A stretch of 37,752 bases of DNA from Reclinomonas americana ATCC 50394 (GCA_048213135.1 PS015136.1:36734-74485), one strand, 5' to 3'; positions 3,630-27,896 are shown, counted from the stretch's first letter. Notes: generated by a model not told the origin, from the sequence alone. Numbers and translations: made by a program.

Positions 3630-6600
3630 ATGTCCATCTTCTTGCTCATCACTGCAGCACTCATTGTTGTGTGTGTACTTGTCGTGGTACCACACGTGGC
3701 CGTCGCCAGCAACACCACGCCACTGAGTAGTGTGACGATTACGGGCTCGATCGTGCTGGCCTCTGCTGACTCGCTAACATTCTCGCTGCGGCCTTCACGA
3801 TCGTACGAGCCTGCAGACGGCGCCAACCCAATGATCGAGGTGCGCAGACTCTTTGTTCCTCTCTCTCTCTCTCTCGTGCATAGTCTCACACTGTGCTCTC
3901 CTCTCTCCACGCGCGCAGGTCCTTCCCGACAACGACAATGCCCTTGCCATGCTTCCCCTGAACCCCGTGCTGTGCCCTTGGTCGGGCGCCTACACCCTCG
4001 TCGGCAACTCCACCGACACCACGCCGACGGCAACAGCCGACTACGGCTTTGTGGTGTGCACGTTTGGTGAGCAATGCCACACTGTTGTTTCACTTTCTCC
4101 CTGCACTCGTCCTCACCGAGTCCTCTCTCCTCGTCCAGCTCGACCATTGCAAAGCACCGGACTACCGTACACGCGCTTCCGTGCACGTGTTTCCACGGTG
4201 GCAGGCAGCGGTCCGCAGTCGCCTGCCATGAACTCGAGTTGCGACCGTTCCCGTTGAGTGCCTTCTCGCAGCTCTGAGTCACTCATGACCCTGCTTGCAG
4301 ACGTTTTGTTGCTCGACACCTCGGTGTCGGCTGCCGTTCTGTCGCTGGCCGACAGCGTGCTCACCGTGTGGTTCAAGGCCAGTGATGCGGCGGACAGCAG
4401 CTTCGGCCTGTCGCCGCGCTATGAGGTGCACTGGCCGCCAAATTATTCGAGAGGAAAGTCTTTGACAAAAAACACTCACCTCTTGTTTCCCCACCGTTAC
4501 AGATCATGGCCATGTCTGATCTCGCCACCCCTCTCCAACCCGTTGTGGGCACCGACTGCGTGTGGAGCACGAATAACACCGACCCGGTGACTTGCATGTT
4601 TGCACTTACCGACAATTACAACGCCACCAGCATGTTTGCTGCTCGAGTCGCCACAAATCAAGTGGCCGGCATGCCGAGCGCCACTTTTGCGCCAGGTTTC
4701 GTGTCTCTTGCTTTGTTTCCTTCAGCTTTGTCTTGTCTTCCTCATTCTGGCGCACAGTGCAAGTGTTGAATGTCGGTGGATTCGACAGCGTGCGCGTCGT
4801 CTCTGGGTGGGTGAACGCCATCACCGTGGTGGGTACCGGCTTCTCTGGTGGCGATCAGTTCCGCGTCATCTCCACTGCCTCGTCGTGCAGTGACGTCGCC
4901 GTCACCAACGCTGCGGCCGTGGTATACTTGCAACGCTCGTGGTCTGGCCACTCGATGCACGTGCTATCGCTCGTGGTCGCTGGCGAAGGAGAGTATCAGG
5001 TGCGTCGGGGCATTCTTGCGCTTTCATGTGTAATGCATCGACACTCATCTCCTCTGTGCATGCACGCGATCAGCTATGCATGAAGTTCGCGCAAGGCACA
5101 GTGTTTAGCGCCATTCCGTCACCATTGTCCACATTCATGGCAGTGGCTCGTTGCGTTTTCGATTCGATTCTCTGCCCCTGTCCTCTTTATTTACCATCTC
5201 TCTCTCCACACACACACACACAGCCGCGGCCTACAACTCCACTCTTGTTGGTTTCACGGGCAGTCCTGCAGTTGATCCGCAACTCGTTGATGCCGCCATT
5301 GCTGGCAAGGGTGTGTGCATTTCTCGCGTTCACACCACCACTTTTGCTTCATCACTCATGTTGCTGCGTGCCTTTTCCTCACAGGACTCACCATCGACGA
5401 TGAGATCGCCGTGTCGCGCAGCCCCACTTGCGCATCGAAAGAGATCACCGGTTTTACCATTGTCGGCGCCGAGCTCATTTCCCCGGAGCTACGCACCTTC
5501 CACATTGGTGCCAGTGTCGGTGGGACGTACTATCTGTGCATTCGTTTCCGCGGGTCGGCTGCGTTGACCCCAGTGGGAAGTGCACCGTTCTTGGTCACCG
5601 GTGCGGCAATCCCGCAATGAGTTAGAGGAGCATCTTGCATGTGGAAACTCACTCCACACCTTCTCTCTCTCTGTTCGCGTCTCCTTGCACTCCCGCAGGT
5701 ATCGTCGCCAACATTGCACCGGCTGTCCTGCTGACGGACCGTGCCTCCAATCTCACCATTATCGGCTCCGCGCTCACCTCCGACGACAAATTCTTCTTTG
5801 TCCGCAGCAACTGCGCGGCCGCCGATCCAGCCACCAACTCCTCCGGCGTGGAGGTGCAGGTGTTGCCGGGGAGAAATTCCACAGTTACTCAGCTGCAATC
5901 CACTGCACGTGGGCTCGGCGACTTTAGGCTCTGTGCTCTGTATGCCAACAGCACACAACCGGTGGACACGGGCTTGTCGATCACTGCGCACGGTTTGTTC
6001 GAATTGCTCTTAGTGATTTTTCCTTTTCTTCCGCGTACTTACCTGCCCCCGTCCGTGGCACTACAGCCGAATTGAACGGCATTGCACCCTCCATTACCGT
6101 GGTCTCCATGGCTGTCACTGTGTCGGTGAATGGTATTGGCCTGCGGCCACAGTTCGGCTACAAGTTCGTGTCTGTGTCGGAGAACGACGGTTGCGGTTTC
6201 CCGAACAGCGATGCCGATGCCGCCGCCCCGATTCACTCCGTAGCGACGGCCTCCGATGGATCTGCTGCCACTCTTGAGCTCAGCACACCTGCCGTGGCCA
6301 GTACACTCTCGCTCTGCATGCGCGAATCCGTCGACTCGCCATACGGGCGAACACTGCTCTCGCTGACCGTGCGCAGTTGAGTCTTTTCGATCCGTCGCCC
6401 TCATGTTTAGCACAACTAACGTGTCTCGCCCGAACGCCACAGCTGTTGCGGTTGCGGAGAGTGTGTTGCCGTCGTTTGTGCGCGCCGGCGCCGGACTGAT
6501 CAGCACCATCACACTGGTTGGCAACAATTTCGAAGAGTCGACGGCCATTCGTCTGGTAGCGTTCGATCAGAGTGCCTCGTGCAACATGAATGGGGAGCCG

Positions 6601-9600
6601 AGCAATTCGCCTGCCGTTCTCTCGCTAACCACTGCGCGACCGACCTCCACTCACTTCCTCGTCACTGTCACTGTCGACTCACCGGGCAACTTTGTGGTGA
6701 GGCGCTGAGGGCGAAGTAATATTTGTTTTCGCACCGATGTCTAATCTCTGCTCTCTCCACCACGCAGCTGTGCATCAAGCCAAGCGACATTCTACCGTAC
6801 GAACAAGTGGGTGGTGTCATCAAGAGCATTCCCCGTTGCGTCTCAGTGTTCCTCCTTCAGTTTCTCTCCACATTGCCGATTTCTCACCCTTTCTTCGCAG
6901 CGCAAGCCACATCTTCGTCGTTGCAGGAAATGCAGGCAACGCAGGCGAACTCACAGCCGCAGGTGTTCCCGCTGACAGTCTACGGCAACGCACTGGATCC
7001 GACCGACAGGCTGATGGCTTCGGCGTTTGGAAACGGCTGCGCTGAACTGCCGGCCAATGTGGTGAACTTGGCCACGCCGTTCGCCACCTCCAACAGCACC
7101 ATGTACTCCACCACTATTTCGGCCACGGTCGGCGGCTATTACGAGCTGTGCGTCAGCTTCCAGAACCGCACGCCAAAGACTCGTGTGCTGTCAAGTGGAC
7201 TTGTTGTGCGCGGTGCGTCGTCGAGAGCAAGACGGTCTCCCATCCTTCTTTAACCGCCACTCACCTCTTGCCACACGCGCAAACTAGGTCTCGTGGAGTC
7301 GGTGTCGCCCCTGTCGGTGCCGGCCGACAAGCCGTCTATCGTCACAGTCCGTGGTTTTGCCTTTGCCGCGAACGACACTTTCATTGCAATTCCGGCGACG
7401 GCCTCGTGCACCTCCCCTCCACCAACGGCCACAACCACGCTGATTCGAGATGCAAGCCAGTCGACACCCACAACTGTGGTGCTGACACTAACGCCGGTGC
7501 TCGGTGGCACTGTTGATGTTCGACTCTGTGTGCGATACTCTGGCGTTTTGGCACCGGTCGCGGCGACGACTTCCATTATCTCCGTTGTCCGTTGCGTTTC
7601 TTCATCCACTAATTGTTCACTCGCGCACTGCTCGTTTTTGCTGACTTCATGTTGTACAGCGCGCCTCGACAGTGTGTCACCACTTCGTATGCTGCGAAGC
7701 AGTCGCACCACCATTACCGTCAGCGGCGTCGGTCTGCGATCGACTCTGCAGTTGCGGGCGGTGATGGCCGACACACCAACCGGCTGTGGCAACTCGACCA
7801 GTCTGATCGACTCGGTGGCGGCGTTCTCGTTGACCACTGTGGATCTGTCGGGTGAGACAGCGTCGTTTATCATGGAGCCACTGCGCTCTGGTTCGCTTCT
7901 GCTGTGCACGCGAACCAACCAGTCGGCGACATTCACGGCGCTGCAGCCCGGCACTGGCATGACCATTCTTGGTTGGTGTAGACGTTGGAAGGGGCTGTGC
8001 GTGTGTGTGTCTGTGATTCGTTGACTGATGAGCTTGCAGATTTGGTGACCTCCATGAGCCCGCTGGCCCTGCGTGCCGGTACCGATCTGGTGAATCGTGT
8101 GACTCTCGCCGGCAACATGTTCCGTCCGGACGATATTGTGGCGGTGGGCGATCCCAGCTTGCCGTGCTCCGCCGTCAGTGCAATCGCTCTCTCCATGCTG
8201 GTGTCGAGTCCTTTCAGCGGGAACAACACGCTTGCCACGGCAACACCGCCACCGTTGCAACCCGTTGCACCATCACGGCAGTCGAGCGCGGCAGTGACAT
8301 TTGTCAATGTCACATCCACTACCGACACGATGCATACTGTCGACATTGTCGTGCGCTTGCCTGGCACTTACACGGTCTGGCCTCAATCAGTCTCGTTGTG
8401 GAGATTTGCCTGCATGGTCCTCACTGAATATCACGATGCAGCTGTGCGTCAAATCCGCTCTGCTGAACACCTTTATCGTGCCAAGCAGCAATACTACTCT
8501 GGTGGCGCTCCTGCGTTGCGTCACTCTGCAGCTCGCCTCCCCCGTTTAATGGCATGCTCACTGCGCACCGCATGCACAGCCTCTGCCTCCACAACCGTCA
8601 CAGAACACATTATTCCCGTCAGCTTGCCGTCGCCTTCCCCGCCATCCATCGTGCCGCTCACCCTGCTAGGCGTCATGTTCACGCCTGCAGATACATTCAG
8701 TTTCGTGGACGCCTCGACTGTTGGCGGTTGTGCTCTGCCGGGCAACTCCACTGCACGTGTGGTAGATGCGACTTTCAAGTCCAACACCACGTTTGTGCTC
8801 TCTGTGGCCGCCACTGGCGGAGGTCACGTGCAACTGTGTGTGCGCTTTGCGTTGCGCGTGCAGCCTGAACCGGTCGCCGAGGGCGAATTCATTTGTCGAG
8901 GTTCGTGTGATTCGTGATCCGCATCTTTGTCGGTGCCCCCTTCTCACTTGCCCTCTGCAGGCGCGTTGCGCTCCATCTCTCCCACGAGCGCGGTTGCCAC
9001 GACAGTGGCACTGCCGGTCACGTTCTCGGGATACGGCTTCACATCGGCCGATATCGTGATCCTCATTCGCCTGGCGACCCCGTCCGCTGCTGTCTCCTGT
9101 GGCACACTGGCCACAGCAACAACACCGACCACCGACATGTTCGTGGCCTCGAGTGTGGTGGCCGACGCCGCCGGCTTGGTGGCCGTGGTCACGTTTGGCC
9201 AGCTGTCGGTGCCCGGTGGATGGTTTGGAGTATGCATTGGTGCGGCCGGCAGCAGCATGTTTGCCGCGCAACCGCAAGTGGTGTTCCAAGTCAAGCGTGC
9301 GTACCTCGATGTTTTTTGTGAGCTTCCACTTGTTCCTCTATTCACTCACCACCTCTTGCATGGCGTCTCTTGGCAGCATCGTACACGTCGGTGCTTCCGC
9401 TGCAATTCGACACCATGTCGCCCGCACCCTTTGTCATCACTGGCGTGGGCCTGTACAAGGGAACGAGTCTGCGCTTTGTGCACGACGCTGGAGCCGGTAG
9501 CTGCGGTGGCACTGCGGTGGTAGACGCAACACTGCCGACGATCAGCGGCATCACAATGCAGCCCGATGGCACTGCGCTCTCCGGCACTTTTTCGGCCATC

Positions 9601-12600
9601 AAGAGCGGCAGCTACCGCTTGTGCGCACTCGCCGACATTTCGTTCGAGTGGGTAGCGATGCCCAGCACGGTGTCTGTGGTGGCCGATTCCATTGTGCCCA
9701 CAAACGTCACCGTCACTGGCATTGTCGTGGACGGCTTTGTCATCTCGTGGGACTCGCGAGTGTCCAACAGCACCAAGAGCACGATTGATCGCTTCTCGGT
9801 CGTTTTCTCCACCCCCGGCTCCACTGCGGCCACCGAGCTCACCGCCGCGTTTGACGTGACATCGGTTCGCCAGTCGGTACGTTGCCTGACATGCGACGAC
9901 GGTCCCGAGCATGTATCTCATTACTATTGATGTTCTTCCCCTGTGGCAGCTGCGTGTCACCGGACTTGCCTCCGAGACATTTGTGTCGTCGCTGCGTGTG
10001 TACCCGTGGATCAAGAGCACCGGAAAGCGCTACAGCGATTACGGAGAACCGTCACCCAACTCGTTGACCACGCTCACCACTGGCACGTTCAAAATATGAT
10101 TGTCGGGTGATTGCAAGTGGCTCTGCTGATGACTGAAGTCTCTCTTGTCGCGCAGCTCCGACTGCGGCACCCGCCGATGTGAAACTGTCTGGCATGACAT
10201 CGGAGCCACGCAGCTTATTGCTGCAGTGGAGCGCTGTCACCATTGTCGGCTTGACGACCAAGTTCAACTATGTAGCGCAGTATCAGCGTGTTGGAGGCTC
10301 CGCGTGGCTCCCCCAGAATCCGGTACCCATTGGTCAACTGAGTACGAAATTCATGGGATTGCTGGCTGGTACGGGCATGTGAAGTGGTGCAGACAAAAGG
10401 GGTAGATGATTCATTCAATCTCTGCATTCGCTGCAGGTGTGTCGTATCGCGCGCGCGTCAAGGCCGTGTCCAATGGAGGCGACGGTCCGTGGTCGTCGTT
10501 GGCCACTGCATCCACAGCCACGGATGGTACTTTGCGAAGTCTTCTCTCGCCTTCCGTCTAGTCGTCTCTGACACCAATGCCCTTTGCACAATGCAGGCTC
10601 ACCTCTGCCTCCGACGAATGTGACTGTCAGCACAAGCCCAGTGCGTGTGGCCTGGCAGCAACCAACAGCACTCTCCACCATCACCGTCGACTCGTTCCTC
10701 ATCGTCTTCTCTTACTCGGGGTGAGTTGTGCAAGAGTCGAAAGTCACACACCCTGCGCACTTGCATCTCATTCATCAGTGCAGTGGTGCCGAGACGCGTG
10801 TGACAGTATCCGACGCTGCGGCGCGGTTCTTCTTGCCGACCGTGGACAAGCTGCCGGTCGGCATCGATATTGCGTGCCGCATGCAAGCTATTGCCGGCAA
10901 CAGCCAGAGTCCGTACTCGGATGCTGCTGTCTTCCAGCTGGCAGCCGCCAGCACGGCTTCGGGTCCCTCACTGTTCCTCACCTTCCCCGATCCGTCCAAC
11001 CCCACGGGCTTGTACGATGGCTCGCCGGTTGGCGGCCAATTGATGCTTACCGACCAGTCGGTGGCCGGCGGCACGGCCAACATTAACCTGTTGGCGGCCG
11101 GCGATGCACTGCAGTTGCGCACAGTCACTGCTAGTGAGGTACTGGGGAAACGAAAAAAACACTCACCTCTGTGCTTGCGGCAGATTCGACACTGGCGGCG
11201 TGGCGCTGGTGCAGCTGTCAGTGACGACATCTGCAACGGTGAGTTTTAGGGGGCACATCTTTCTCCACAACGTTCCTCCTTTGTGCTCGTCTAACCCCAC
11301 ATTCCAATGCTCAGGCGGGCTCAATTGGCACTCTTGTTCGCTCTTTCGACCTGAGCGCTCGTGCCGTGTCCATCTCCAAGATGACGACCTCGTCGATTGC
11401 GACGCGTGACACTGCTCCCGCTGCTACTGCACCAAGTGGCAGCAACGCGTGGCGTCAACCGCTGACGCTGACCGCCACCATTTCGCCACCGGTGCGTTTG
11501 TAATGCGGTGTATGCGCTGAGGGCCACCGAACTCATGCATGGTTGCGCGTGCACAGAGTGAGACTGCAGCTCTCATGGTGTCGACCTCGTCCGGTGGATG
11601 GGTGGGTGCCGACGGTCCCTTGTGCTCCAATTTCCCAGATGCCCCCAGACCCTCGTACGACAAGGCGTCCGGTGTTCTGCAAGTGCCGATTTGCGGTGCC
11701 GGCTCGTTTGGTCTCATGCGCAATGTTGGCGTCGTCACTCGTGCGTCACTCATTTCTTTCCGCGAATCCCGTGCTTGCTGTCGCCACTCACAAAAATGGG
11801 CCTCCATATCGCACAGCTCCACCCTCCAACTCGGGCGACTCGGGAAGCGGCACCAACGGCAACGGTTCCTCCGGTAGCGGAAGCACGCAATCACTGGCCA
11901 AACCCTGGTACCGCAGCGCCGGTGCCATTGCCGGTATCAGCGCCGGTGCGGCGGCAGCCTTTGCTCTCATCATCCTTCTCATTGTGGTGATTGTGAGGAG
12001 ACGCCGTGCCAAGCGCCTGGAGAGCAACAAAGTTGCGCGCTCGCACGTGTGTGTATACGCACATTAGCGACCAGCAGTCTCACTCTTCTTCCGCTTGTGT
12101 TCGCACAGGCTGGACTCACGATCACTGCGGCGGACGACCCCAACGGTGCCAACAAGTGGCCGATTCGTGACGAGAGGCGACACTCGGCGATTGGCTTGCT
12201 GGATCCGACAAGCCTCCACAGTCCCATGGCTGGCGCACAGCCGCCGGCGTCGCCAAGCGCATTCAAGCACCTCAGTACGCCCAAGTTAGTGGCGGGGGCA
12301 GCCGGCAGCGATTTGGCCACGGAGAGTGGCTCCGAATCGACGAAGCGCGCCACCATGATGCAGACGCTGAGCGACATGTCGACGACACATCCGTCGAGTG
12401 CCGGCAGCTTCGGTTCCATGTCACGCGACATCAACTCGGAGTTCGCCCGGACGCCAGGCAGTCAGCCACCTCACGACCACGCGCCGCATCACATCGGAAC
12501 GACGTTTGTCACTTTCGATTTTGATGGCATGACTGCGGACGACTTGCCGAGCGAGTACCTGGAGACGCTGGACGACTCACCAGTCGGCGACGGTCACGGC

Positions 12601-13011
12601 GGCGACGGATCGAGTGCACCGGCTATGCTAACACCACAGCCAGCCACTCCCTCCGGCACCTTCATGCGACCAATGGCCCTCTCGCCACGCACCATGGCCG
12701 ACGACGGGTGGACCGTGGTGCGCGAGGATCGCAACCTCTCGCCGGCCTCGGCCGCCGCCTTGGCACGTCGTCAGCATCACCACGGTTCGTCGGGAAGCAT
12801 CAGCCCCGCCGAGAGCGAAGACGTCGCCACGGCGTCGTGGGCTCACGTGGCGCCACCAGCCACGGAATCAATTTTGGATGTCACTCGCACGCGACGAGCA
12901 GTGGCGGCCACCACCGGCGGCCTGCCCAGCGGACGCAACAGCGCGCGTCCCTTCCAGACCGGCACCTCTCCACCCAAGAGTCGCGTACCGGTCTTCCTCA
13001 AGCCGCAGTGA
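3630..13011 (+). CDS. Large type-I membrane/surface protein: signal peptide, FN3-like N-region, 12 Cys-paired IPT/Ig-like repeats, ~3 FN3 domains, juxtamembrane beta domain, one TM helix, Ser/Pro-rich cytoplasmic tail (~31 exons, ~2400 aa)
   Basis: ATG 3630 gives a hydrophobic leader MSIFLLITAALIVVCVLVVVPHVAVA. 30 phase-compatible introns join the ORF pieces. FN3 motifs include SLLLQWSAV...YVAQYQ...LLAGVSYRARVKAVSNGGDGPWS. TM AIAGISAGAAAAFALIILLIVVIV is followed by RRRRAKR. Many N-x-S/T sequons. TGA at 13009-13011. Confidence 0.85.
10083..10155 (+). other. GC-AG intron
   Basis: acc act g|GCACGT...cgcAG|ct ccg act is the phase-1 join that keeps the FN3 frame (TLTT-APTAAPADVKLSG). The nearby GT at 10087 gives the wrong phase. 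Confidence 0.65.
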
Positions 13012-13134
13012 GCAACAGCGAAAACGAAAACAAGAAGAACATGTGTGCAGCGACGCCACCAGCAGCTGCAGTATTAGTTTGTGTGTGTATACGATGATGC
13101 ATATTGGTACTCTAAAACAAAACAAACGGGGAGG

Positions 13135-13705
13135 TCACTTGGTCTCCTCCTGGAGGGTGGGAGCAGAAAGTGAGGTCATGGTCAGCGATGTTATGCTGCA
13201 TGAGTCGCACCTCTACATCCCAGCCGTCGTCTCTCAGTTCCTGAATGAGTTCCGCGGCGCGCTGTTTGGGCAGGTGAGAAGGGAGGGTGAAGGGTAAGGG
13301 AAGGAGAGAGAAAGGGAAAGGAGGGGGAAAGGAGAAGGGAAGCGAGTGAAGGCAGGCAAGGGACGGCGAGAGACGAGCGAACAACAGACAGAGACAGGCA
13401 CAGAGGGAGAGAAGGGAGAGTGACGCAACGTCATCGGCAGGCGACGAGTGTGATTCTGCAGGCTCCGCATCTCCATAACGCGACCGATAGGCAAAGAAGA
13501 GTGCAGTGAGGGAGCCCACCAGGAGGAGCACAGCACGTGCGCCACGCTGAGTGTGAGAGCCAGGGAGACACACACAAACGCAGAGTGAGACAGGGTGACA
13601 AGAGAGAATGCATTCAGCAAGTGCATGTGCAAAGACCTTGGTGACTTGGCGCACAATGCCCATCGCCTCCTCAAAGTTCTTGTCGGGTATGGGTGCACTG
13701 CTCAT
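13135..13705 (-). CDS. Small single-pass membrane protein of unknown function (~83 aa, 4 exons)
   Basis: Spliced: MSSAPIPDKNFEEAMGIVRQVTK|RGARAVLLLVGSLTALFFAYRSRYGDAEPAESHSSPADD|RAAELIQELRDDGWDVE|EETK*. Three phase-0 introns have CTCAC branch-like motifs and pyrimidine tracts. Confidence 0.65.
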
Positions 13706-13767
13706 CTCCTCTGACGCCACAACTGAAGACACAAGAGACACGAGAGACAGGACTTTTTACTCATTGA

Positions 13768-15741: not shown

Positions 15742-16327
15742 ATGGACGACGACTTTGGAGGAGGCGTGAGTGGTGTGAGTGGCGCAGGTGGTGCGCATGG
15801 CGGTGCCAATGTCTCTGCGAGTGTGGCTGCGAGTCTGTCGGGACAAGGCGATGCTCGCAACTGGCTCATTCATCTGTTGTACACGCGAGGAGAGCATGAT
15901 GAGTGCTTGAGACTCATTGAGGAGCAGGTGTGTGTGTGTGTGAGAGAGAGAAAAGAGGGGCGAAGAGAGGCGAAGAGAGAGATCGATAACAACGCATTGA
16001 TCAACTGCCTTCTGTGATCTCTCTCTCTCTCTCNNNNNNNNNNNNNNNNNNNNNNNNNNNNNNNNNNNNNNNNNNNNNNNNNNNNNNNNNNNNNNNNNNN
16101 NNNNNNNNNNNNNNNNNNNNNNNNNNNNNNNNNNNNNNNNNNNNNNNNNNNNNNNNNNNNNNNNNNNNNNNNNNNNNNNNNNNNNNNNNNNNNNNNNNNN
16201 NNNNNNNNNNNNNNNNNNNNNNNNNNNNNNNNNNNNNNNNNNNNNNNNNNNNNNNNNNNNNNNNNNNNNNNNNNNNNNNNNNNNNNNNNNNNNNNNNNNN
16301 NNNNNNNNNNNNNNNNNNNNNNNNNNC

Positions 16328-16396
<69 letters not shown>

Positions 16397-19062
16397 CAAG
16401 TCTTCGATTGTCTCCCTTGCTCTCGTGCTTCATTCCTACTCGACAGACAAGTCTCTCTCTCACTCTCTCTCTCTCTCTCTTCTCACTCTTCTCTGACTGT
16501 CTCTCTCTCGCTCACACACGCTGACCCCCCTCTCAGCTGCAAGAGACAAAAGGCATGTGCGAGTACGCTCTGTATGTCAAAGGTCTGTGCCTGTGTTCCT
16601 CCCTTCCCTCACTGGTCAGCTGTGTGTAACCATCATTCTCTCCACCGCTCCTCAGCTCTGATCAGCAGGCAGCGTGGCTCGATTCAAGAGTCTCTGGAGC
16701 TGTTCCGCTCCGCCACCATTCTCAACCCGCACAATGTCAGCAACTTGAAACAAGTCGCTCGATCACTGTTGCGTGCTCTGCTTTTGTTCATGTGCTTTGC
16801 TGGCATGCGGCTTACGTGCGCGTGTGTGTATGCGCAGTCACCTGCTGGGCAGGCACAAGAACGCGATTGATGTGTACGACGAGGCGCAACGCTTGGTCGA
16901 GGAGGATTGGGTGAGTTGTCCAGGAAGAGGGAGAAAGAGAGAGAGCCATGCGTCTCTGCTTCCTGACCCCCTTCCCTTCTCCCAGGAAATCTGGCACAAC
17001 AAGGGCGTGTGCCACATGTACTTGAAGAACTTTGACCAGGCCATCGACGCCTTTCAGTGCGCCAACGCCATTGCGCGGCACGATGCCACCTTCATGCAGC
17101 TGGCCAAGGTCTACACCATGCAAGACGACATTCCGGCGGCCATTGAGACCCTGGAGGAGGCACTTGAGTTCTCGCCCGAGAACCCCGAGATTCTCACCAC
17201 GCTCGGCATTCTGCACTTGCAAGTTGGCGAGAACCAAAAGGCGTTTGACAATCTCGGCGCGGCTCTCACGCAGGATCCGAAGAACCCCAAGGTGTGCGAG
17301 ACTCACTCATGTTCAATCTCTGTCTCTTGCATGGCTGCTCACCCCACCCTGCCAGACCATTCTCGCCGCCGGCTCAATCATCCAAGACCACAACGAAATG
17401 GATGTGGCGCTCAGCAAGTACCGTGTGGCCGCCAAAGAGACACCAAACTCGGCGCAGCTGTGGAACAACATTGGCATGTGCTTCTTTGGCAAGCAGAATT
17501 ATGTGGCAGTTGAGGCGATGGGAGAGGGGGGTGGGAGGTGGGGAAGGAAGATGAGCTGGCACTCACTGCAGTATCGCAGGCCATTTCATGTCTGAAGAGG
17601 GCGCTGTACCTGGCGCCGTTCGAGTGGATCATTGCGTACAATCTCGGGCTGGTGCACTTGAATACGGGCCAGTTGCGTTGCTGGGGTTTTGTGATCCAGT
17701 CATTTGCGGGTTTTGTTGTTTTGTGCTCTGTCATGGTTGTGGAGCGGTCTCTCTCTCTCTCTCNNNNNNNNNNNNNNNNNNNNNNNNNNNNNNNNNNNNN
17801 NNNNNNNNNNNNNNNNNNNNNNNNNNNNNNNNNNNNNNNNNNNNNNNNNNNNNNNNNNNNNNNNNNNNNNNNNNNNNNNNNNNNNNNNNNNNNNNNNNNN
17901 NNNNNNNNNNNNNNNNNNNNNNNNNNNNNNNNNNNNNNNNNNNNNNNNNNNNNNNNNNNNNNNNNNNNNNNNNNNNNNNNNNNNNNNNNNNNNNNNNNNN
18001 NNNNNNNNNNNNNNNNNNNNNNNNNNNNNNNNNNNNNNNNNNNNNNNNNNNNNNNNNNNNNNNNNNNNNNNNNNNNNNNNNNNNNNNNNNNNNNNNNNNN
18101 NNNNNNNNNNNNNNTCGTCACTTGTTTTTTCGTCTTGCGATCCAGTGTGTTGTTCTTGTGCTCTGTCGCAGTTGTGGCACAGTCTCTCTCTCTTCCCCCG
18201 TCGTTTGACCTGTGTGTTATTCTTGTGCTCTGTGGTTGTGTCCATGTCGCTTTGGGTTTCCCGTCGTGTGACGCAGTGTTAATTCTTGTGCTCTCGCTGC
18301 TTTGACCTAGTCTCTTGGGTGTCCGTCTTGTGATCCTGCGTGTTGTTCTTGTGCTCTGTCGCTGTTGTGGTGCAGTTTCTCTCTTTCTTTTCCCCCGTCG
18401 TGTGATCCTGCGTGTTGTTCTTGTGCTCTGTCGCTCTTTTGACCCAGTCTCTTGTTCCCCCCACCCCCGTCTCGTGACGCAGTGTGGTATTCTTGTGCTC
18501 TGTGGTTCTTGTGACCCAGTCGTCACTTGTTTTGTCATCCGTCTCCATCCTGCTTGCCTTTTCTCCCCTTTTCCCTTTCCACTTGCTTCCTCTCACATTC
18601 CCCTCCCCTCTCCCTCTCCCTCTCCCTCTCACTCTCCCCTCCCCCCTCCCCCTCTCCCTCACCCTCCCCAGATTCGCCTCGGCCTTCCACTACTTCTCCG
18701 CCTCGATCAACCTGAAGCGCGACTTTGCCAGCGCCTACATGTACCTGGCCATCACTCTGTCGCGGCTGGACGACTTTGAGAATGCCTGCCACGCCTACGA
18801 GAAGGCGATTGAGATGGAGAGGTGTGCTGCAATCTCCGTTTCCGATCACGCTGCCATGGTCTCACTCTTCCCCCCTTTTGGTAGCGACCATTTGTTTGAG
18901 CTCAACTACGCCGTCACGCTGTACAACCACGGCGACTCGAGGAATGCACGCAAGCACTTCCAGCAGTTCCAGCGCCTGTTCGAGGACCTGGATGAGGCAG
19001 CCAAGCAGGAGGATCCTGACGTGCTCACCATCTCCAAGCGTCTCAGCGATTTGTTGAAGTGA
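15742..19062 (+). CDS. BBS4: Bardet-Biedl syndrome 4 protein (BBSome TPR subunit), 9 exons
   Basis: Exons 15742-15927, 16537-16582, 16656-16767, 16838-16910, 16986-17291, 17356-17508, 17580-17671, 18672-18821, 18885-19062. Motifs [86 protein letters not shown] match BBS4. Confidence 0.96.
16017..16510. repeat. (CT)n microsatellite tracts flanking assembly gap 16034-16326 in BBS4 intron 1
   Basis: Read directly from the sequence. Confidence 0.9.
17687..18545. repeat. Degenerate minisatellite (~62-73 bp units, core TTCTTGTGCTCT) in BBS4 intron 7, interrupted by gap 17764-18114
   Basis: Six units of form CGTC-N-TGTGA(T)CC-N-GYGTGTTRTTCTTGTGCTCTGT plus a variable tail lie between ~18131 and ~18540. 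One more diverged unit lies before the gap. Confidence 0.85.
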
Positions 19063-19441
19063 GGTCGCCGCGCGTGTGTGTGTGCGCGCGCGCGTTTCAG
19101 ATTGAAATTATGGTGGTGTATACGCGATATCCGGCTGCATGCATGTACAAGTGCAGACAACAGCGGTGTTCACGTCCAGGCTTTGGTGTCGTATTGGCCA
19201 CGAATGACAGGATCAATTATTGCAAAAAATGCGTCACCATCGCTCTTTTCTCGTATGCCTTTCACCACCATCACTCTCGTTCTCAAGCACCACGTAGTCT
19301 CGTTGCGCAAGTCGCGAACGCCCGGCCACGTGCCTCGTAGTTGTATTGTCAGGCCTTCTTGTCAGCCGGAAATGCACTCAACCTGTCATCCTCGCACCGA
19401 TCTTTCCACGCCGTTTTTCTTGTCTTGTGTGAGAGAGAAGC

Positions 19442-22132
19442 ATGTCATCCAACAAGAAGGGTGTACCCAAGGCTGCCGCCGCAGCCAATGCTGTCGGTGT
19501 GTCCCTCTCACCCCTCCACACCCCATTCTCTCTCTCCCTCACTCATTCTCCTCCTCTCAGAAACCGAGAACACTCGCCGTCTGGAGCAAGCACGAGCCGC
19601 CTTCCAACACGCCCAGGCCGCAGTGAGCCAGGGCCAGCTGAGCGACGCACAAGTGATCCTGAGTCAGTGCGTGGACGAGTTCACAGCGCTGCTCGGACGC
19701 CAACACGGCGACACCATGCAAGCCATGTACACGCTGTCGATGGTGCTCACCAACGTCGGCCGCATGGACGAAGCGCTGGCACTCCTCCAGGAGCTGGTCG
19801 AGCTCGCCGAGCGCATGTTTGGCTCGGAGCACGTGAACGTCTCTGCTGCGAAGCTGGAGTACGAGAAGGTGGGCCGCGCCATGGCGCAGCGCGAGGCCGA
19901 GGCACTGCGCGCACAGGTCGCACAGATGCGGGAGGAACTCCGACTCAAGGAGCTGTTGCTTGACGGCTCAGAGCGCATTCCCGACCCGCTGGCAGTCCCG
20001 CTTGGTGCGTTTCCACGAGTTTTGTCGTGTTTCTCGTTTTGTCCTGTCATCCACCTCACACTGTTCGGTGGTGCCAACCTGCAGTGGACACGGATGAGCT
20101 GCGTGAACATCGCCGGATCATCTCGCAGAGTGTGCACGAGCTGCTGCCGTCGACGATTCTGGCCGAGCGGGGCGATCCGGATGCCGGATCGCAACTGGAG
20201 CAATCGGCCGTGTTTGCCGATATTCCCGACGCAGTCCGCGTCGCCAGCCGCGGCCTGAGCGAGTTCCGCGATCCGTCGGGCACGCCTCCGCCCGCTCCCG
20301 ACGCTCCCTACCACAAGGTAGTGCGCGCTCATGCCAACACACTGATTCGCATCGTGGAGGACCTGCCGAGCGATGCGCAGGATCGTGTGCGACAGATTGG
20401 CATGCAGACGCCGGTCACGCAGCATGCCGTCAGCGCTGTGGTTAGCCTCCGGGATCAGGTCAGCAAGGTGTTCAAGGAGGTTGCTGATGCAGCGCAGGTC
20501 GTGTACGGTGTGTCGGTGACGGAGGAGGCGGCCGCTGTGGCGCGTCGTGAGGCCGAGGACGGCAATGATCGCGACACGCACGATCGCGACCTGCGCCAAG
20601 TCAAGGCCATTAGCCGTGCCAGCGATCGCCTTGACAGCTCGGTGCACGCCTGCAATCAGACGCAGTCGCTGGTGGACGAGAGAAGACGCGGACAGAGCGA
20701 GACGGAGCGCGAACTGCTGTGGAACGACCTCTCTGTCAAGTGCGACGAAACGCTGGCCAAGCTGCGCGGCATGATTGACGAGATGCCGCGCAAGCTGGCT
20801 CGTGCGCAGCAGGAGACCAACTACACCAAGCAGGGCATTCTGCATGAGCGTCAAGAGCTTCTCAACCGCCTGCGCGTCAACGTGGTGCGCCTCGATGAGT
20901 GCGAGCGCGTGGAGCGACGGCTTGCCCGCGAGCGTCAGCAGCTGGACGAGATTCTTGCGCGACTCGTCAAGCGCGCTGACGCGGTGGAGATGGTGCAGAC
21001 TGAAGTGGTGCGATGGGCGCCGGCGCATCTGCGCAAGATGCGAGAGGCGGCGGCGAAGGAGCTTCGGGCGTGGCAGACCAGTGCCCGCGAGGCTGAGAGC
21101 TTTGCCACCCGACGGGAATTCGGTCTGCAGCGCGGCAGGGAGGAGCTGGAGCTGCAAGTCAAGCGATATGTGCGGTTCACGGAGGTTGCCGACCGCACTG
21201 CCGCCGACAATAACAAGTGGCGTGTGTTGAGGTTGCCCAGCAAAGTGGACCAGCAGCGCGAGGAGGAGGAGCGCAGTCAGGCGTTTGCCGCGGCCGCCGA
21301 GGCCAGCAAGCTGCTCGAGCTGTGCACGCGATTCTCGCTCAAGTGGGAGGACTGCTCGGAGGCCGACGCTCGCCTGCACTACCGCCGTGTGATGCTGGAC
21401 GCTGCGGTCGACGCCTGCAAGGGGCACCCGCCACCGGCCGTTCTCGCGGATTGTTGCGTCCCCACCCCGTTCATCGTGCAACTGCAAGAAGCACTGACAC
21501 TGACCTGCTGTCACACATACACAGTGGGGCTGTCTGATCTGCAAGACGACGTGGCGCTGTCGATCCAGTCGCTGGACTCGCTGCGACTGCACGCGTCGCC
21601 GCAGCCGATGAACGTTCGACCCAACGCCGCACAGGCGCGCTTCCAGTTGCACGAGACCCTCAATTCCGTCCTGGGCAAGGAGCATGCGCCGGTGACGGTG
21701 CGCTTCTCGCCACAGCAGAACACATTGACACTGGAGTTCGAGGTGCCGGTGCTGTCGACCAGCGCCCGCGATTCGCCCACCTCGATGGAGGCCCGAGCTG
21801 CGGCGACCACGGCACGTGCAGTCAAGGCCGTGCAGCGCGGACTGCGCGCCGAGCTCGCCGACCGCCTGCCCCCGGTGGAGCCCGTCATCGAGCGACGCGA
21901 CCACGCCATTGTGGCCATCGTAGCCGAACTCGGCTCGGCGGACGCACTGGTGGCGCTGGCGCTTCGCCGCGACCACTTGTCGCAGGCCATTAGCCAGGCA
22001 CAGCGACGATTCGCCGACGAGGATATCAGCAGCTTGCTGACCAAGACCTCGGCTACGGCCGCCGCAGGAGCGGCCGACGACTGGGCCGCGAGCAGCCACT
22101 CCACTGTCGTGTCGTCTGTGGGCCGACTCTGA
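19442..22132 (+). CDS. TPR (kinesin-light-chain-type repeat) plus long coiled-coil protein, 3 exons
   Basis: Introns 19497-19560 and 20005-20084 (both phase 1). KLC-type TPR LLGRQHGDTMQAMYTLSMVLTNVGRMDEALALLQELVELAERMFGSEH is followed by an E/R/Q/L-rich helical region. Confidence 0.8.
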
Positions 22133-22349
22133 GGATGACGATGTAAAAACGGAGTGAATGCACGCTATTTTAAAAAGAAGTTGTATCTCCTTCTCCTCCT
22201 CCTCCATTATCATCAGCCCGCAAGATCACGAAGTTTCTTCGGTGCCGCTGAAGGACAAGATTGATTCTCGCCTCTAGATATTCCGAACACATCGGCGAAG
22301 AGGAGAAGAGAAGAGAGAGCGACAGCTTCTCCTTTGCGTTGCCGCCAAC

Positions 22350-25300
22350 ATGAAGTTCGGTGTGCAGCTGAGTCTGCACTCACTGACGAAATGGCGCAAC
22401 AACTATGTGCGATACAAGCGACTGAAGGACAAGATCCACGCAGTGGTCGCAGCTCACATTGCCACCGGGTCTGACTCTCTCTTTGTCTCCCCTTCCCTCA
22501 CACACACATCGCTCACTTTGCGCTCATCAGTGTGGCCATTGACTTGCTGCCTGAGGAAAAGTCGTTTGAGGAGAGCCTGCACTCAGATCTTCGGTTCGCA
22601 TCACACTTGTCTGTTTGCTCTCTCTCTTTCGTGCTCACACTGTGCACGTAGGGCGGTGAACAACTTTGTGGCGCTGCAAAAGGCGGCACTGGAGAGCGAT
22701 CTGTTTGCGTTTGAGCAGCGTTTGCGCGTGTCGTTGGCGAATGGATCGTCGGATCGCCATCGACGACCCGAGGACGAGGAAGAAGAGGAGCGTGGGATTA
22801 CACTGGAGGAGGTGTCGCGACTGCGTGCGCTGTGTGTGGACTTTGTGCAGCTGCGACACTTTGTGCAGCTCAACGCCGAAGGCTTTCGAAAGGTGCTGAA
22901 GAAGCATCGGAAGCACGCGCAGTATGCGCTCGATCCGCGACTCGATCCCGCCACGGCCTATCGACAGCCGTTTGCCGATCCCGAGTCTCTGGCGTGGTTT
23001 GGTTCGCTCACTTGCTGTGCACTGGCATACCCTCCCCTCCCCTAGAAAACCTACCTCGTTGCTGATCCCTCGGTTCGCAGCTCGTCGACTGCAGCACATT
23101 CGCTCGCTCTTCCAGCAGCGTGTCAGCGACGCTGTGAGCGAGACCGAGCTGTTCAAGCAACTGATGGAGATCACGTTGGAGGTGCCGCCGGTGGTGCGTC
23201 GGCAGCGATCGATCTGGCGTCGATACTCGTTTCGCGGCTCGTGGGTCCCGCTGGCGCTGTGCTTGTATCAAAAGGTGAGCATTGCGGGAGAGCTCGACTC
23301 GCACTGTCTCTTACTCTCTACTCCCTCGTTCAGTTCACGGAGACGTTTGTCAAGGCCGTCACATTGGCGACGGTGGTCTCCTTTGCCTGGAAGACGGAGA
23401 GTCAGGGCAACGCGGAGGCACTGCTGATGCCGCCGGGCGGCATCTCGCGATTCGCCTTTATCGGCTGCCTGTTTGGCCTGGTGTCGTTGTTCCGCGCCGC
23501 TGCACTGGTGTTTGCTGCGTACTTTGCTCACGATGCGCGACTCGTCGGTTGGATCTGGGGCACGGTGCGGGCGCTCAGCTTGTGGACTCTCGCGCAACTG
23601 TCGGTGTGTGCACTCTGTGTCTCTGTGGCTGTGTGTCTGCACCCCCTCGTTGAGTTGTGCGCCCGCGCAGCAATCTCCATGGCTGTGGAAATTGGTCTTC
23701 CTCCTGCTCCTCCTCGAACCCTTTGCCGGTGTGATGACCTGCGCGGCCGCGTCGCGCTTGTTGTGGGGCTCACGTCGCTTGTGGAAAGGTGTATTCTCCC
23801 CGCTCCGCTGTCATTTCTTTTTCCCCCTGTCTCCCTCACATGCGTTTCATGCAGCCGACGTGAGCCGACTGTACGAGCGCATGGCCATGATTGATGCCAA
23901 TGGCGCCACCGGCAACGGCATGAGCGATGAGACACCCATTTCGCGTGGCACCTACAGCCTGTTGTCGTTCGCCATGTCGGTGTTGGGCGTGCTCGGCGCC
24001 TTTGTGATTGCGCGTTACGGTTTCGGCATGTACGCGTGCTTGCTGGTGGCGGCGGCGTTGGCGTTTGTGGAGGTGCCGCTGTTCTCGCTCTCATCGCGCC
24101 CCAGCCGGGATCTGCGCTTGCCCGACCCGATTGTCACCTACCACATGTCGCCGGCGTCGCTTCTCTCGCAACACCACACGATGCGATGGACGATGATTGT
24201 GCTGCTGGCCTCGTCGCCGGCGTACCAGGCCTCACCAACCGCCGTCCTACTGGTGTGTGCCGGCCTCTCGCTGGCCGTGCGAATCGGCGAGTTCGTCGGC
24301 AAACTCTTGTCGTATTCCACGGGCGCACGGTTCGGCACATGCGCGTGGTGTCCGCCTCCTCTTTTTCGCTTGGACTCACGACGGTGCCTCTCACAGCTTC
24401 TCACTGAGTCGCGTGTCGCTGTATGCCACCTCGAGCTTTGCGCTCTTCGCCCTGCTGCCGTTTGTCTCCGAGTACGCCGACATGATGCGCGCTCCGTGGT
24501 GGATGCTGCAATTTAAGTTGCGCCTCCCCGTTGCCGACGTCCATGTCTTCCACTCTCGCTCTCTCTCATCATGGCTGTGTGCGCAGACTGCCGGCGCCTC
24601 TGTTTGGAGATGTACGACTCCTTCTCAGCTTTGTTATTCTGCTGACATTTAGCGTGTTCAACTACCTCGCCCGCACCACCTCGGCAGCGCTGCGGCACAG
24701 CACCGAGTCTCACGCCCCGTCCACACTCGGCGGCCCATTGGATACGCGGCTGTGGCTGTTCAAAGTCGTCAAGAGCTTCTTCTCAGTGCTCGCCGGCGTG
24801 TTTGTGGAGGTGACACACTCACTTTTGCTTGTCGATCACTCACATACTCACTAACCTTGCGTGCTCGACAGAGACCATTTACCAACGTCCTCAATCTGTC
24901 GTTCATGTCGCTGGCGCTTGGCATCGTCACGTCGGTGCTCGGTGTGCTCGAGGCGTGGTCTGCACCGAAAATCATCAACGCCTCGGCCGACGCGGAGATG
25001 GCAGAGCTGGGTTTCGAGCGGCGCGGCCGTTTCATTGTGGTCGAGGGGCTTGATGGTGCGTTTTTCCCCTTCATATACCCCGAACTGTGTTTAAGAATTC
25101 CTCACCACTGCACACTGGTGTGAGCAGGATCGGGCAAGTCGACGCAGTTGGCCATGCTGGAGACCAAGCTGCGACTGGCGGGTTTCGATGTGGTGACCAC
25201 CGGGTGGAACTCGTCGTCGATGATGGCCGAGTCCATCAAGGCCTCGAAGCGTCTGCGTCACATGCGGCGTCGCACGTTTGCGCTCAGTCAGGCCACCGAC

Positions 25301-27845
25301 TTGTCGGAGCAGTTGTACGACGTGGTGCTGCCGGCGCTGAGGTGCTGCTGCATGCTGTTGTACGGACCACCTTGTGTATGCTCACGTGTTAATGCTTGCA
25401 GTGCTGGCAAGATTGTTCTCTCCGATCGCTACTTTTACACGAGCCTGGCGCGCGACACCGTGCGCGGCAGCGACCGCGTGTGGCTGGAGAATTTGTACGC
25501 CAACATGATTCAGCCGGATCTCGTCATGTACTTCCGCATCCCGGTGGAGACCGCCATCTCGCGCGTGGTGAAGCGGCGCATGGCCAGCAGCGCGCACGCG
25601 GTCGGTGAGTCCGACGACGACGAGGACGACTTGTCGGACGACGACCTGCGGGGATCACTGACCGACAGCCTACCGGTCGAATATCTCGAGACGCGTCCGC
25701 GCTCGCGACAGCCCCCGTTTGTCAGCAAGGTTCTCCCCTCTCCCCTCTCCACGGCCACCAGCGCAGCGGCGCCGTCTGCATCTCGCCGTTCATTTCCGCC
25801 GACGGGCGTGGTGGAGGACGGCGAGGGCGAAGATGTCGATGTGCGACGCCGCTCGCACTCATCGGCGCTGGGTGTGGTCACCAGCAGTGGCAGCGACAGC
25901 CACAGCAGCAGTGGATTCGGCCATGGTCTGGCGCACGCGGCCGATGACAAGGACGACGGCGAGCCGCAGTTGTCGTTCTACGAGGCTGGTCTCGATCTCC
26001 ATCTCGAGGATGATCCGCTAAAGGTACCAGGAACCACAGCTGTGTGCGTGGCGTTGCGCTCACTGTGTGTGGTGTTGCGCGCAGAATTTCATCTCGTTCC
26101 AGACGCTGGTGTCGGACCAGTATGACATTCTGGCTGATGGTGTGTGTGTGTACTGCTGTGCTTGTTGCGCTGACGCATTGCCACCAACATTTGTTCTTCT
26201 CTGCACCTTTTTGCAGCGTACGATTTCAAAGTGTTTGACGCCACGCAGGCCATGGAGTTGCAGCACGAGATCGTGATGCATCATGTCAACAGGATCCTCG
26301 TGCAAGGTCCGCATGTGCGCACCAACGTGCTTAACGCCTTCGACAAGAACCCCGAAGACGATCCGCCAAAGATGCGCTCAAATTATCTGCGCGGGCACGC
26401 CTGGAGCGGTCTTCATTTCTACTTTCGCAACATGCACCAGGTGAGCGCTGCGAGCGTGAGTGACTGTTCTTCCCGAGCCGTCCATCTAAGCCACGCCAAC
26501 AGACCATGCTGGAGCGCACCGAGGAACTGATGGATCTCGGCCCGATGCCGCGCGTGTTCTTGCACGGAAATCCACACATTGACAACTTTGCCAAGGTTAT
26601 ATCTTGGTGCCGGCGCTGTTCCGCGGAGAATGCCCTAACCCCACTCACGTGTGTAGGGCGTGGCCGGCTCTGCCTTGTTGGACTTTGATCGCTCCAAGTT
26701 CGGTCCATACGCCTGGGATCTGCTGCGCCTGATGGTGTCGCTCTCCATCCGCTCCAAGAGCGCTTCGACGCACCTATTGCACTGGTCGCTCGTGCGTGCC
26801 GTGCAGGAGGGCTACTTTTGGGGCTTCCTACATCCCGACATGCCCCTCCGCGACATGCAAAAGCTGTCGGTTTGTGCGCTTCACGATCGCCTCCTTGCCG
26901 CGTTTCTCCTTGCTAATTTCGCGCACAGGTGGCTCGCCCGTTGCCCGAGGAGGAGACGACGAATGCGTACCTTGCCGCCAATCGTGGCTGGGCCATGGAG
27001 ATGCGTGAGAATCAGCTGCCGGTGGACGACGAGAATGTGCAAACCCTGGTGCGCTTGTACGCCGAGTCGCGTGGCGAACCGAGACTGCTTTCCGAGTTTC
27101 GTCATCTGTTGCTCCTCTCCTCCAACCAGCGAGCTCAACGTCGGGTTGCACGAAACACCCTTTCTCATACGCAGCTATCGCATCGAAGAAGCTGGTCGTG
27201 GTTTCGGGTCCATGGCCGTTCGCGATCGATACTTGGTGGTGTTGGCGCCCACCGCCGCCGCCGCTGCCACGGATCGCCTATTCCTCGACATAAAAGAGAC
27301 TCGACGCGACCCCGACACGCGCTACTTTGCCAATCCATTCGACCACAATGGCAAGCGCATGATCGCAGCTGGCAAGCTGTACGCTCCGAGCTGGGTTGAA
27401 CGGGAGGTGAGTGTGGGTGTGAGAGAGAGAATGAGGTGCAATTCGTGTATTCACGACTCTTCGTGCAGGGGTTTGCCACGCTGGGCGATGTCGAGTATCA
27501 CATTCGACAGATACCGCCACAGACAATCAAGCTGAAAGGACTGTTGAACCTGGCCGACGCGCGTGACTTTGCGTACACGGCGTCCACTCAGCTCGGTCGA
27601 GGTCATCGCCTCTCGCTGCAGCCGGCCTGGTCGCCGCGTGATTTGCTGGCCCACCTGGAAGAGTTGCGACAGTGTTGCTCTTCTTGTCCTCAGGTGCGCT
27701 TGCACCCTCAACCGATCTCTCTCCGTGCAGCAATCTGCCGACCATCATCGATGTGGCTAATCAGTTGCGACAAGAAATCACGGGAGCGTACTGGCGCTAC
27801 CGCGCCAAGTGCGACGTTGCCGAACGCAACTTTAACAACAAATAA
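22350..27845 (+). CDS. SPX domain + multi-pass (MFS-like) membrane region + thymidylate-kinase-like P-loop domain + DUF2252 kinase-like domain fusion (~20 exons, ~1400 aa)
   Basis: SPX: MKFGVQL...WRNNYVRYKRLKDKI...FVQLNAEGFRKVLKKHRKH. Roughly 10 hydrophobic segments at 23240-24960. TMK: FIVVEGLDG|SGKSTQ, IVLSDRYFYTSLAR, PDLVMYFRIPVETAISR. DUF2252: LHGNPHIDNF, DFDRS..GPYAWDLLRL, GFGSM..RYLVVL, LDIKE, YHIRQ, LGRGHRLS. 19 phase-compatible GT-AG introns with no in-frame stop until TAA 27843-27845. Confidence 0.88.
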
Positions 27846-27896
27846 TCGACACCCAATCCCACTAGTGTATAGAGCAACCAACCTCGCATGTTTATA

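Follow-up and report, generated by a model that had tools for sequence, protein, structure and literature searches.

Gene content and intron set of the window

We analyzed a 37,752-base stretch of DNA from Reclinomonas americana ATCC 50394 (GCA_048213135.1 PS015136.1:36734-74485), referred to below as the window. The window is eukaryotic nuclear DNA with ~58% G+C and five N runs, and dense short GT-AG introns split its genes on both strands. In the range discussed here, the plus strand carries a repeat membrane protein gene (gene 1, 3630-13011), a BBS4-like TPR gene (15829-19062), and several further genes, including one with a thymidylate kinase domain. The minus strand carries a 28-exon gene (27897-35778), a cyclin gene, and others. 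The 5' splice sites (donors) of these introns take two forms: a common form that mostly follows an exonic G, and a second form beginning with GTTG that follows A, C, or T.

Introns were called with a Viterbi gene finder that was self-trained on the window and that scored donors on intron positions +3 to +9 only, ignoring exon bases. Because the raw output was noisy, two genes were used as anchors: gene 1, curated through its repeat periodicity, and the BBS4-like gene, curated through homology. The finder was then retrained on these two genes only and run on all other genes; these test genes were neither curated nor training material. The resulting best set contains 75 introns: 29 from gene 1 (30 curated introns minus an ambiguous one at 12047), eight from the BBS4-like gene, and 38 from other genes. 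The latter derive from 40 calls that were identical in two blind runs (59 and 75 calls) and had a YAG acceptor and a length of 50–140 nucleotides (nt), from which two calls antisense to gene 1 were removed.

Several candidate donors were excluded from the counts. These are the tandem in-frame donors at 26441/26456, 30849/30834, and 33765/33774, the ambiguous 12032/12047/12053, and three GTTGCGT donors called identically in one run only (29236, after T; 14059, after T; and 13429, after C). A further donor, acg/GTTGCGT at 481, was excluded since reading through its candidate intron keeps the frame and meets no stop, so that it is possibly no intron (within a motif, a slash outside brackets marks the exon–intron boundary). 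In the final set, the median intron length is ~70 nt, acceptors are YAG, and a branch motif, [A/T]CT[C/A/G]A[C/T], lies mostly 12–31 nt 5' of the acceptor. Among 36 seed introns, the branch-site motif (ACTCAC, TCTCAC, or CCTGAC) is unusually uniform.

Two donor forms split by the last exon base

We identified 49 donors with a G at intron position +5 (+5G donors, the normal class) in the best set, of which 45 follow an exonic G and four follow another base. We also identified 16 GTTGNG donors (the GTTG class, ~21% of the 75 introns), none of which follows a G (A 9, C 5, T 2). A Fisher test of +5G against GTTGNG donors by the presence of G at position -1 gives 7.5e-12 for the whole best set. The other introns comprise three GTT[A/T]CG donors (two after G, one after non-G), six donors with neither +5G nor +6G (five after G, one after non-G), and one GC-AG intron, which follows G.

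The split recurs in separate parts of the data. In gene 1, 16 +5G donors follow G and two follow non-G, against none and seven for GTTGNG (Fisher, 7.5e-5). The corresponding counts are 5/0 and 0/3 in the BBS4-like gene (0.018), 24/2 and 0/6 in the test genes, which include the minus strand (3.1e-5), and 29/2 and 0/9 in all genes but gene 1 (2.0e-7). A fully blind run over both strands gives 51/22 for +5G donors and 3/20 for GTT donors with +6G (1.7e-6), and many of the non-G '+5G' calls in this run are gene-finder errors. When the excluded donors at 29236, 14059, 13429, and 481 are added, the GTTG class stands at 19 non-G and one G. Two donor forms exist and are split by the -1 base, independently of the repeat gene, and this split is no product of biased donor picking or of counting paralogous introns of that gene.

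These independently rebuilt introns bear out an earlier sequence-only reading of the window, which had proposed that the base before the intron almost dictates donor class (46 of 48 and 16 of 17 donors over 65 introns). On the plus strand over 3840-27663 we recover 53 introns and matching proportions: 34 +5G donors (32 after G, two after C), 14 +6G donors (13 after non-G plus the donor at 4696), four with neither (all after G), and one GC-AG intron (after G). About 12 of the introns in that reading lie where our two blind runs disagreed and are uncounted here. Its observation that both classes superimpose as G-[G/T]-T-G-[C/A]-G holds, and the exceptions are those it described, C/GTGCGT at 9297 and 11741 and CAG/GTTTCGT at 4696.

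The GTTG class has a narrow motif of its own: GTTG is followed by C (13) or A (3) at +5, G at +6, and T at +7 in 12 of 16 donors. GCGT occurs in 10 of 16 GTTG donors versus 8 of 35 GTG.G donors (p = 0.011), placing the GTTG class nearer to consensus on the intron side. On the exon side, C is found at -2 in 11 and A at -1 in nine of the 16. Seven exons end in CA, versus 8.3% in coding sequence (p = 1.6e-4), and the normal class has no such preference at the equivalent positions (CA at -3,-2 in 4 of 49). The exon ends of GTTG introns are therefore not freed from constraint, as had been suggested. Phases 1 and 2 account for 14 of 16 GTTG donors versus 27 of 49 +5G donors (p = 0.03), a difference that is not significant without gene 1.

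GTTGCGT is itself overrepresented, with 22 copies in the window versus 8.5 ± 3.1 in shuffled sequences (0 of 100 shuffles reach 22), and 14 of the 22 copies lie at predicted or validated donors. By hand count, a G precedes only ~10 of 54 non-donor copies of GTTG[AC]G. The GTTG class is thus not demonstrably depleted of -1 G; rather, the strong G enrichment seen in the normal class is absent from it. Four more GTTGCGT copies on the minus strand (37614, 36584, 2816, and 149, preceded by T, G, C, and T, respectively) stand before sequence that resembles an intron in having a pyrimidine tract and CAG; gene models are poor in these regions.

GTTG donors in the repeat gene and the test genes

Gene 1 (plus strand) has 31 exons and encodes a 2413-residue type I membrane protein, and its curated open reading frame contains no stops. 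The product has a signal-like N-terminus, ~15 divergent repeats of ~100 residues, one transmembrane stretch, and a 300-residue tail. The repeats are 25–35% identical in protein and have in common a start motif, x-L-x-S-V-S-P, and an internal motif, G-x-Y-x-L-C. They are mostly encoded one per exon with phase-1 introns at their boundaries, and some have an extra phase-0 intron at GxYx/LC. Repeat periodicity and the GxYx/LC motif set the donors at 7213 (gcg/GTGCGT) and 8375 (acg/GTCTGG), correcting two finder errors (7206 and 8351, both dropped). Other early calls were dropped as 5' of the ATG at 3630 (3302, 3457, and 3578) or beyond the stop at 13009-13011 (13008 and 13081). Pfam names nothing in the gene 1 product, its repeats included, or in a region that we read by eye as FN3-like, and a protein search with a gene 1 exon gave no relatives.

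Gene 1 contains seven GTTG and 18 +5G donors. Six of the GTTG donors are in phase 1. They lie at 4253-4259 (ccc/GTTGAGT), where read-through meets a stop; 5150-5156 (ctc/GTTGCGT, Pro codon), where the frame shifts without an intron; 6376-6382 (gca/GTTGAGT, Thr codon), where a stop intervenes; 6835-6841 (ccc/GTTGCGT, Pro codon), which is in frame without a stop and is placed by repeat periodicity; 7591-7597 (tcc/GTTGCGT, Pro codon), placed by gene 1 curation; and 8515-8521 (tgc/GTTGCGT), where a stop intervenes and there is no other in-frame donor. The seventh, gca/GTTGCGC at 11114-11120, is in phase 2 and is required by a frameshift. With GT-AG splicing at the GTTG donors, the boundary codons of gene 1 are Pro or Thr, and the Pro agrees with that from an unambiguous C/GTGCGT intron at 9297.

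That intron (agc/GTGCGT, 9297-9302, Pro codon) and ctc/GTGCGT at 11741-11746, both on the plus strand and placed by gene 1 curation, are normal-register donors that follow C. A third exception, cga/GTACGT at 33389-33394 on the minus strand, is in phase 0, follows A, and has no alternative in-frame donor. These look like real introns, and the proposal that a G is strictly needed at the U1 '-1' position is too strict. Gene 1 also contains a probable GC-AG intron of 73 nt (ctg/GCACGT, 10083-10155, plus strand). The frame there is open to 10096, and the curated reading frame stays intact with the intron in place. The sole phase-compatible GT alternative, 9996, would give an atypical 160-nt intron and was dropped.

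We identified six GTTG donors in the test genes, all called in the blind runs. On the plus strand, att/GTTGCGT at 21453-21459 (phase 1, both runs) is in frame without a stop and is placed by signals only, and taa/GTTGCGC at 24517-24523 and aga/GTTGCGA at 27663-27669 (both phase 2) are required by a frameshift. On the minus strand, cca/GTTGCGT at 32861-32867 (phase 1) has no alternative donor, aca/GTTGCGT occurs at 32229-32235 (phase 1), and a second aca/GTTGCGT at 30445-30451, in phase 0 after Thr ACA, is required by a frameshift.

Three GTT[A/T]CGT donors were kept separate from the shifted class; two of them follow CAG and have the bulged register (described below) as their best. The first of these, cag/GTTTCGT at 4696-4702 on the plus strand, is better taken as a site of the canonical or bulged-U type that pairs strongly on its exon side (bulge 9 pairs, shifted 7, canonical 5). 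The second, cag/GTTACGT at 30138-30144 on the minus strand, is of the same kind (bulge best, 8 pairs).

Tandem candidate donors 13–15 nt apart, some of them in frame, occur at 4238/4253 (plus; 4238 reads cga/GTTGCGA and lies 15 nt upstream of 4253), 29236/29223 (minus), and 26441/26456 (plus). These may represent alternative 5' splice-site use or simply ambiguity in the gene models.

Homology support for GTTG donors in the BBS4-like gene

The BBS4-like TPR gene (plus strand) has eight introns, with two N runs inside, and was modeled by tblastn of relatives. Five of its donors are normal and all follow G; the other three are GTTG donors after T, A, and A. Relatives were collected by searching a representative protein library and scanning metagenome contigs. 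Many are 55–72% identical, mostly on intron-less metagenome contigs; the best named relative is an Aphanomyces astaci (oomycete) protein, 52% identical over one exon. The modeled spliced product aligns end to end and colinearly with the metagenome relatives. Across the eight junctions, 57–81 of 74–84 spanning high-scoring segment pairs are ungapped within five residues on each side. The presence of a BBS4-like gene implies that the organism is ciliated or flagellated.

The three GTTG donors lie at three of these junctions, and there the spliced product aligns ungapped to 75–78 relatives. At 16768-16774 (act/GTTGCGT, phase 2 in a conserved Leu codon, 70-nt intron), the residues of homologues are contiguous, and 75 of 77 spanning pairs are ungapped. 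At 17509-17515 (gca/GTTGAGG, phase 0 after Ala GCA, 71-nt intron), the blind finder had missed the intron and the homologue alignment is gap-free (78 of 84). At 17672-17678 (cca/GTTGCGT, phase 2), the intron contains an N run, and the homologue alignment stops here and restarts at 18672 (78 of 78). Two finder calls in this gene were dropped in favor of true donors (16572 for 16583, and 17538 for 17509). Long (GT)n, (GA)n, and (CT)n tracts adjoin the N runs in the introns of this gene (15940-16034, 16327-16400, and 17740-17763, plus strand) and probably explain the assembly gaps.

Locus L039 (3600-3930) encodes a 70%-identical relative with two intron positions in common with the window (after residues 48.3 and 85.7), and it uses normal-register donors at both (aag/GTGAGC and ct/GTGAGT). 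The second of these corresponds to the GTTG donor at 16768: L039 reads tcgct/GTGAGTGCC and the window reads cact/GTTGCGTGC, in the same Leu codon and the same phase. In this single orthologous intron, the cleavage point is unchanged and the window has one extra T. The sequence-only reading had proposed that a single G/T change would allow a one-nucleotide shift of the donor. The one comparison at hand shows an added T, not a shifted donor, and a shift of that kind would leave the mRNA one base short and disrupt its reading frame.

Across both anchors and the test genes, reading through 10 of the 16 GTTG introns would shift the frame or meet a stop, and one more spans an N run and is set by homology. 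Frame and homology thus fix the mRNA length at 11 of 16 GTTG junctions. Cleavage at the GT of GTTG donors is consistent with the reading frame and with homology. Only the donor sets GTTG introns apart from normal ones: their median lengths are 70 and 71.5 nt, and they agree in composition, in acceptor, and in branch motif. U12-type introns have a donor consensus of /RTATCCTT with a matching branch site. No GTTG donor resembles this consensus, and the branch motif is as in the other introns.

A shifted U1 register as a proposed explanation for the GTTG class

Potential base pairs were counted against the canonical U1 5' end, ACUUACCUG, as printed in passages of PMC4856993 and assumed to be the organism's own. 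Three registers were compared. For the GTTG class, the mean number of potential pairs is 7.06 in a register shifted by one base, 6.38 in a bulged register, and 4.06 in the canonical register (n = 16). The normal class reaches 7.24 in the canonical register. Shifted pairs outnumber canonical pairs in 14 of 16 GTTG donors, with two ties. In 14 of 16, no register offers more pairs than the shifted one (strictly best in nine, tied in five), and the bulged register is best in two.

The GTTG class therefore probably represents a shifted U1 register, a second discrete form of the major-spliceosome donor, and we hold this reading with moderate confidence. The common form is G/GTNNG(T), mostly G/GTGCGT or G/GTGAGT, with its strong exonic -1 G. 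The second form, [C][A/C/T]/GTTG[C/A]G[T], would present the same recognition element with T replacing the usual intron +1 G. The U1 small nuclear RNA (snRNA), or a U1-like recognizer, would pair with the second form in the same physical register, so that the first G of the intron lies opposite U1 C9, the usual place of the exon -1 G, and the last two exon bases face U10 and G11. Catalysis would then have a single GU at its disposal, one base upstream of where the GU sits in the normal form, and cleavage would fall one base 'early' relative to the U1 register. We infer that U1 is the reader, that its 5' end is canonical, and that the GU is picked by later steps (U6, U5, and Prp8).

Two further observations favor the shift. 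The C-A exon end faces U1 G11-U10 in the shifted register, and would face U10-C9, forming no pairs, in the bulged one. In addition, an exon -1 G and an intron +5 G compensate for one another in canonical donors. Donors in the window with neither +5G nor +6G follow this rule (-1 G in five of six). Unlike these, GTTG donors have neither -1 G nor +5G in the canonical register and fit the rule only when read one base out of register.

The idea of a common recognition register was advanced in the sequence-only reading. It is retained here as the best reading, and 7.06 shifted pairs for the GTTG class come close to the in-register 7.24 of the normal class. The claims that accompanied it were too strong. 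In particular, the shifted form was said to arise where the codon cannot supply a G, but the codons in front of both phase-0 GTTG donors (GCA, Ala; ACA, Thr) allow a final G.

Several results weigh against a shifted register. With canonical U1, ViennaRNA assigns GTTG donors a mean of -1.7 kcal/mol versus -6.3 kcal/mol for normal donors, with weak duplexes in the shifted and bulged registers alike; the minimum-energy duplex sets G+1 on C9 in only eight of 16 GTTG donors; and deleting the extra T from GTTG donors gives equal or better pairing. These weak energies, with no loss on deletion, mean that canonical-U1 thermodynamics alone fails to explain the extra T. For the five gene 1 donors after C, four are ties between the shifted and bulged registers, and the remaining one favors the bulge. 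Of the 16 GTTG introns, five keep the frame and contain no stop, and three of these are placed by signals alone. Protein-level evidence is also compatible with both intron ends slid by one base (TT...AGN), an option that only two things speak against: the GT-AG rule and the Pro codons found where gene 1 repeats meet. Finally, all of the introns are sequence-based models drawn from one 37.7-kb window. Either exon-side pairing and protein contacts outweigh the calculated energies, or the organism has a U1, or a U1 variant, that departs from the canonical form.

Competing explanations

An alternative use of the extra U is a bulged register with canonical pairing of +1 G to C8 and +2 U to A7, in which the +3 U is looped out and GCGU pairs with U1 positions 6-3. 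Its mean of 6.38 pairs is not far under that of the shifted register, it is strictly best in two and tied in five of 16 GTTG donors, and it fits the donors after CAG at 4696 and 30144 best (9 and 8 pairs). A register of this type has been described for human sites (in passages of PMC4856993). In a bulged duplex, however, exon -1 still faces C9 and the bulge is destabilizing, so the enrichment of -1 G should equal or exceed that in normal donors; a -1 G is seen in 0 of 16. The characteristic C-A at -2,-1, set against U10 and C9, would form no pairs. We therefore regard a bulge as an unlikely basis for the GTTG class. The weak canonical duplexes of this class could instead reflect a second U1 snRNA or a non-canonical U1 5' end that matches GUUGCGU (for example, with A for C at position 8), or a U1 that matches GCG better than ACUUAC. 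The narrow GTTG motif (+5 C 13, A 3; +7 T in 12 of 16) is in keeping with such a recognizer. Canonical U1 neither predicts the preference for C opposite U1 position 5 nor explains why the normal class has C over A at +4 (21 versus 11). Against this, to our knowledge the U1 5' end is nearly invariant across eukaryotes, GC-rich genomes with canonical U1 also use GTGCGT and GTGAGT, and an Rfam scan of the window returned nothing at gathering scores, with no snRNA gene found there. A variant U1 is improbable to us as the explanation.

We consider it very unlikely that the split is an artifact or confound of biased donor picking, of paralogous introns in the repeat gene, or of codon and phase effects. 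In its favor, gene 1 introns lie at homologous repeat boundaries, where Gly codons lead to G/GT and Pro or Thr codons to C/GTTG or A/GTTG, the GTTG class is enriched in phases 1 and 2 (p = 0.03), several in-frame alternative donors are present, and the background frequency of -1 G before GTTG[AC]G is low anyway (~10 of 54). The split is nevertheless seen with donor scoring that is blind to exon bases, and it is kept without gene 1 (p = 2e-7), on the minus strand, which lay outside the sequence-only reading, and in the BBS4-like gene (5 of 5 versus 0 of 3). The gene 1 repeats are only 25–35% identical in protein, and without this gene the phase effect vanishes while the -1 effect stays. Young mobile (introner-like) introns that bring their own donor and prefer a CA target would account for the uniform donor motif, the narrow range of lengths (48–89 nt), and the CA exon end. 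An all-against-all blastn of 73 introns, however, finds only 13–18 nt low-complexity or branch-site matches and no families, and GTTG introns equal normal introns in length and composition. The intron at 16768 also occurs at the same position and phase in the 70%-identical L039 relative and is therefore old. An introner origin is scarcely credible on this evidence.

Comparison with known splice-site registers

The human shifted-register class is rare, comprising tens of sites, unlike the GTTG class, which makes up 16 of 75 introns here. A shifted (+1) U1 register at atypical human 5' splice sites is cited in passages of PMC4856993 as Roca and Krainer, 2009. As described there, the +1 G of these human sites faces U1 C9, every pair is displaced by one position, and the GU remains the site of cleavage. 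Passages of the same source describe bulged-nucleotide (+2/+3 U) registers at human 5' splice sites (Roca et al., 2012; Tan et al., 2016).

GTTG donors resemble the human shifted sites, as portrayed in those passages, in looking very weak in the canonical register. They differ in having a GTTG[C/A]GT consensus that is not A-rich, a near-complete split by the -1 base, and a C-A exon end, and our evidence comes from sequence models. They resemble human bulge sites in that the downstream G.GU is brought into pairing by an additional U behind GU, a description that 4696 and 30144 fit best. Bulge sites would still make use of a -1 G, which the main GTTG class does not have (0 of 16). A limited full-text and motif search of an open-access library turned up the human work on registers and no account of a species in which GTTG-type donors are abundant.

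Other genes and domains

A per-exon Pfam search names cyclin, TPR, thymidylate kinase, weak DUF2252, and weak ankyrin domains, and no others. The junction at 25342 is validated by the coordinates of the thymidylate kinase profile (77 then 80). Thymidylate kinase exons run on into weak-DUF2252 exons at 24874-28244 (plus strand), as either a fused gene or two genes merged by the finder, and a protein search with a DUF2252-like exon gave no relatives. The cyclin exon matched only 33%-identical proteins with homology confined to that exon, which provides no junction test.

Implications

Shifted registers have precedent at human splice sites. New here would be the scale (about one-fifth of the introns in the window), the GC-rich consensus, the near-complete -1 split, and the C-A exon end. 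It is possible, though we think doubtful, that this organism has made the shifted register a standard second donor class for about one-fifth of its introns, perhaps served by a U1 variant of its own that matches GUUGCGU. Throughout the genome, the register of recognition would then be uncoupled from the position of cleavage, with a dedicated signal for introns behind non-G codon positions.

The hand-off from U1 recognition to the cleavage site has been studied mostly on a few atypical human sites and on engineered reporters. If the 21% share holds genome-wide, this genome would contain hundreds or thousands of natural shifted donors, a natural experiment on the hand-off. There is also a practical consequence for annotation. 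Standard donor models rate N/GTTGCGT as very weak, and our first finder runs missed or misplaced several such donors, including the one at 17509; annotating this genome needs a two-class donor model. The two donor forms further bear on the preference of introns for positions after G: in this organism, introns after A, C, or T are apparently not avoided but accommodated by a signal of another kind.

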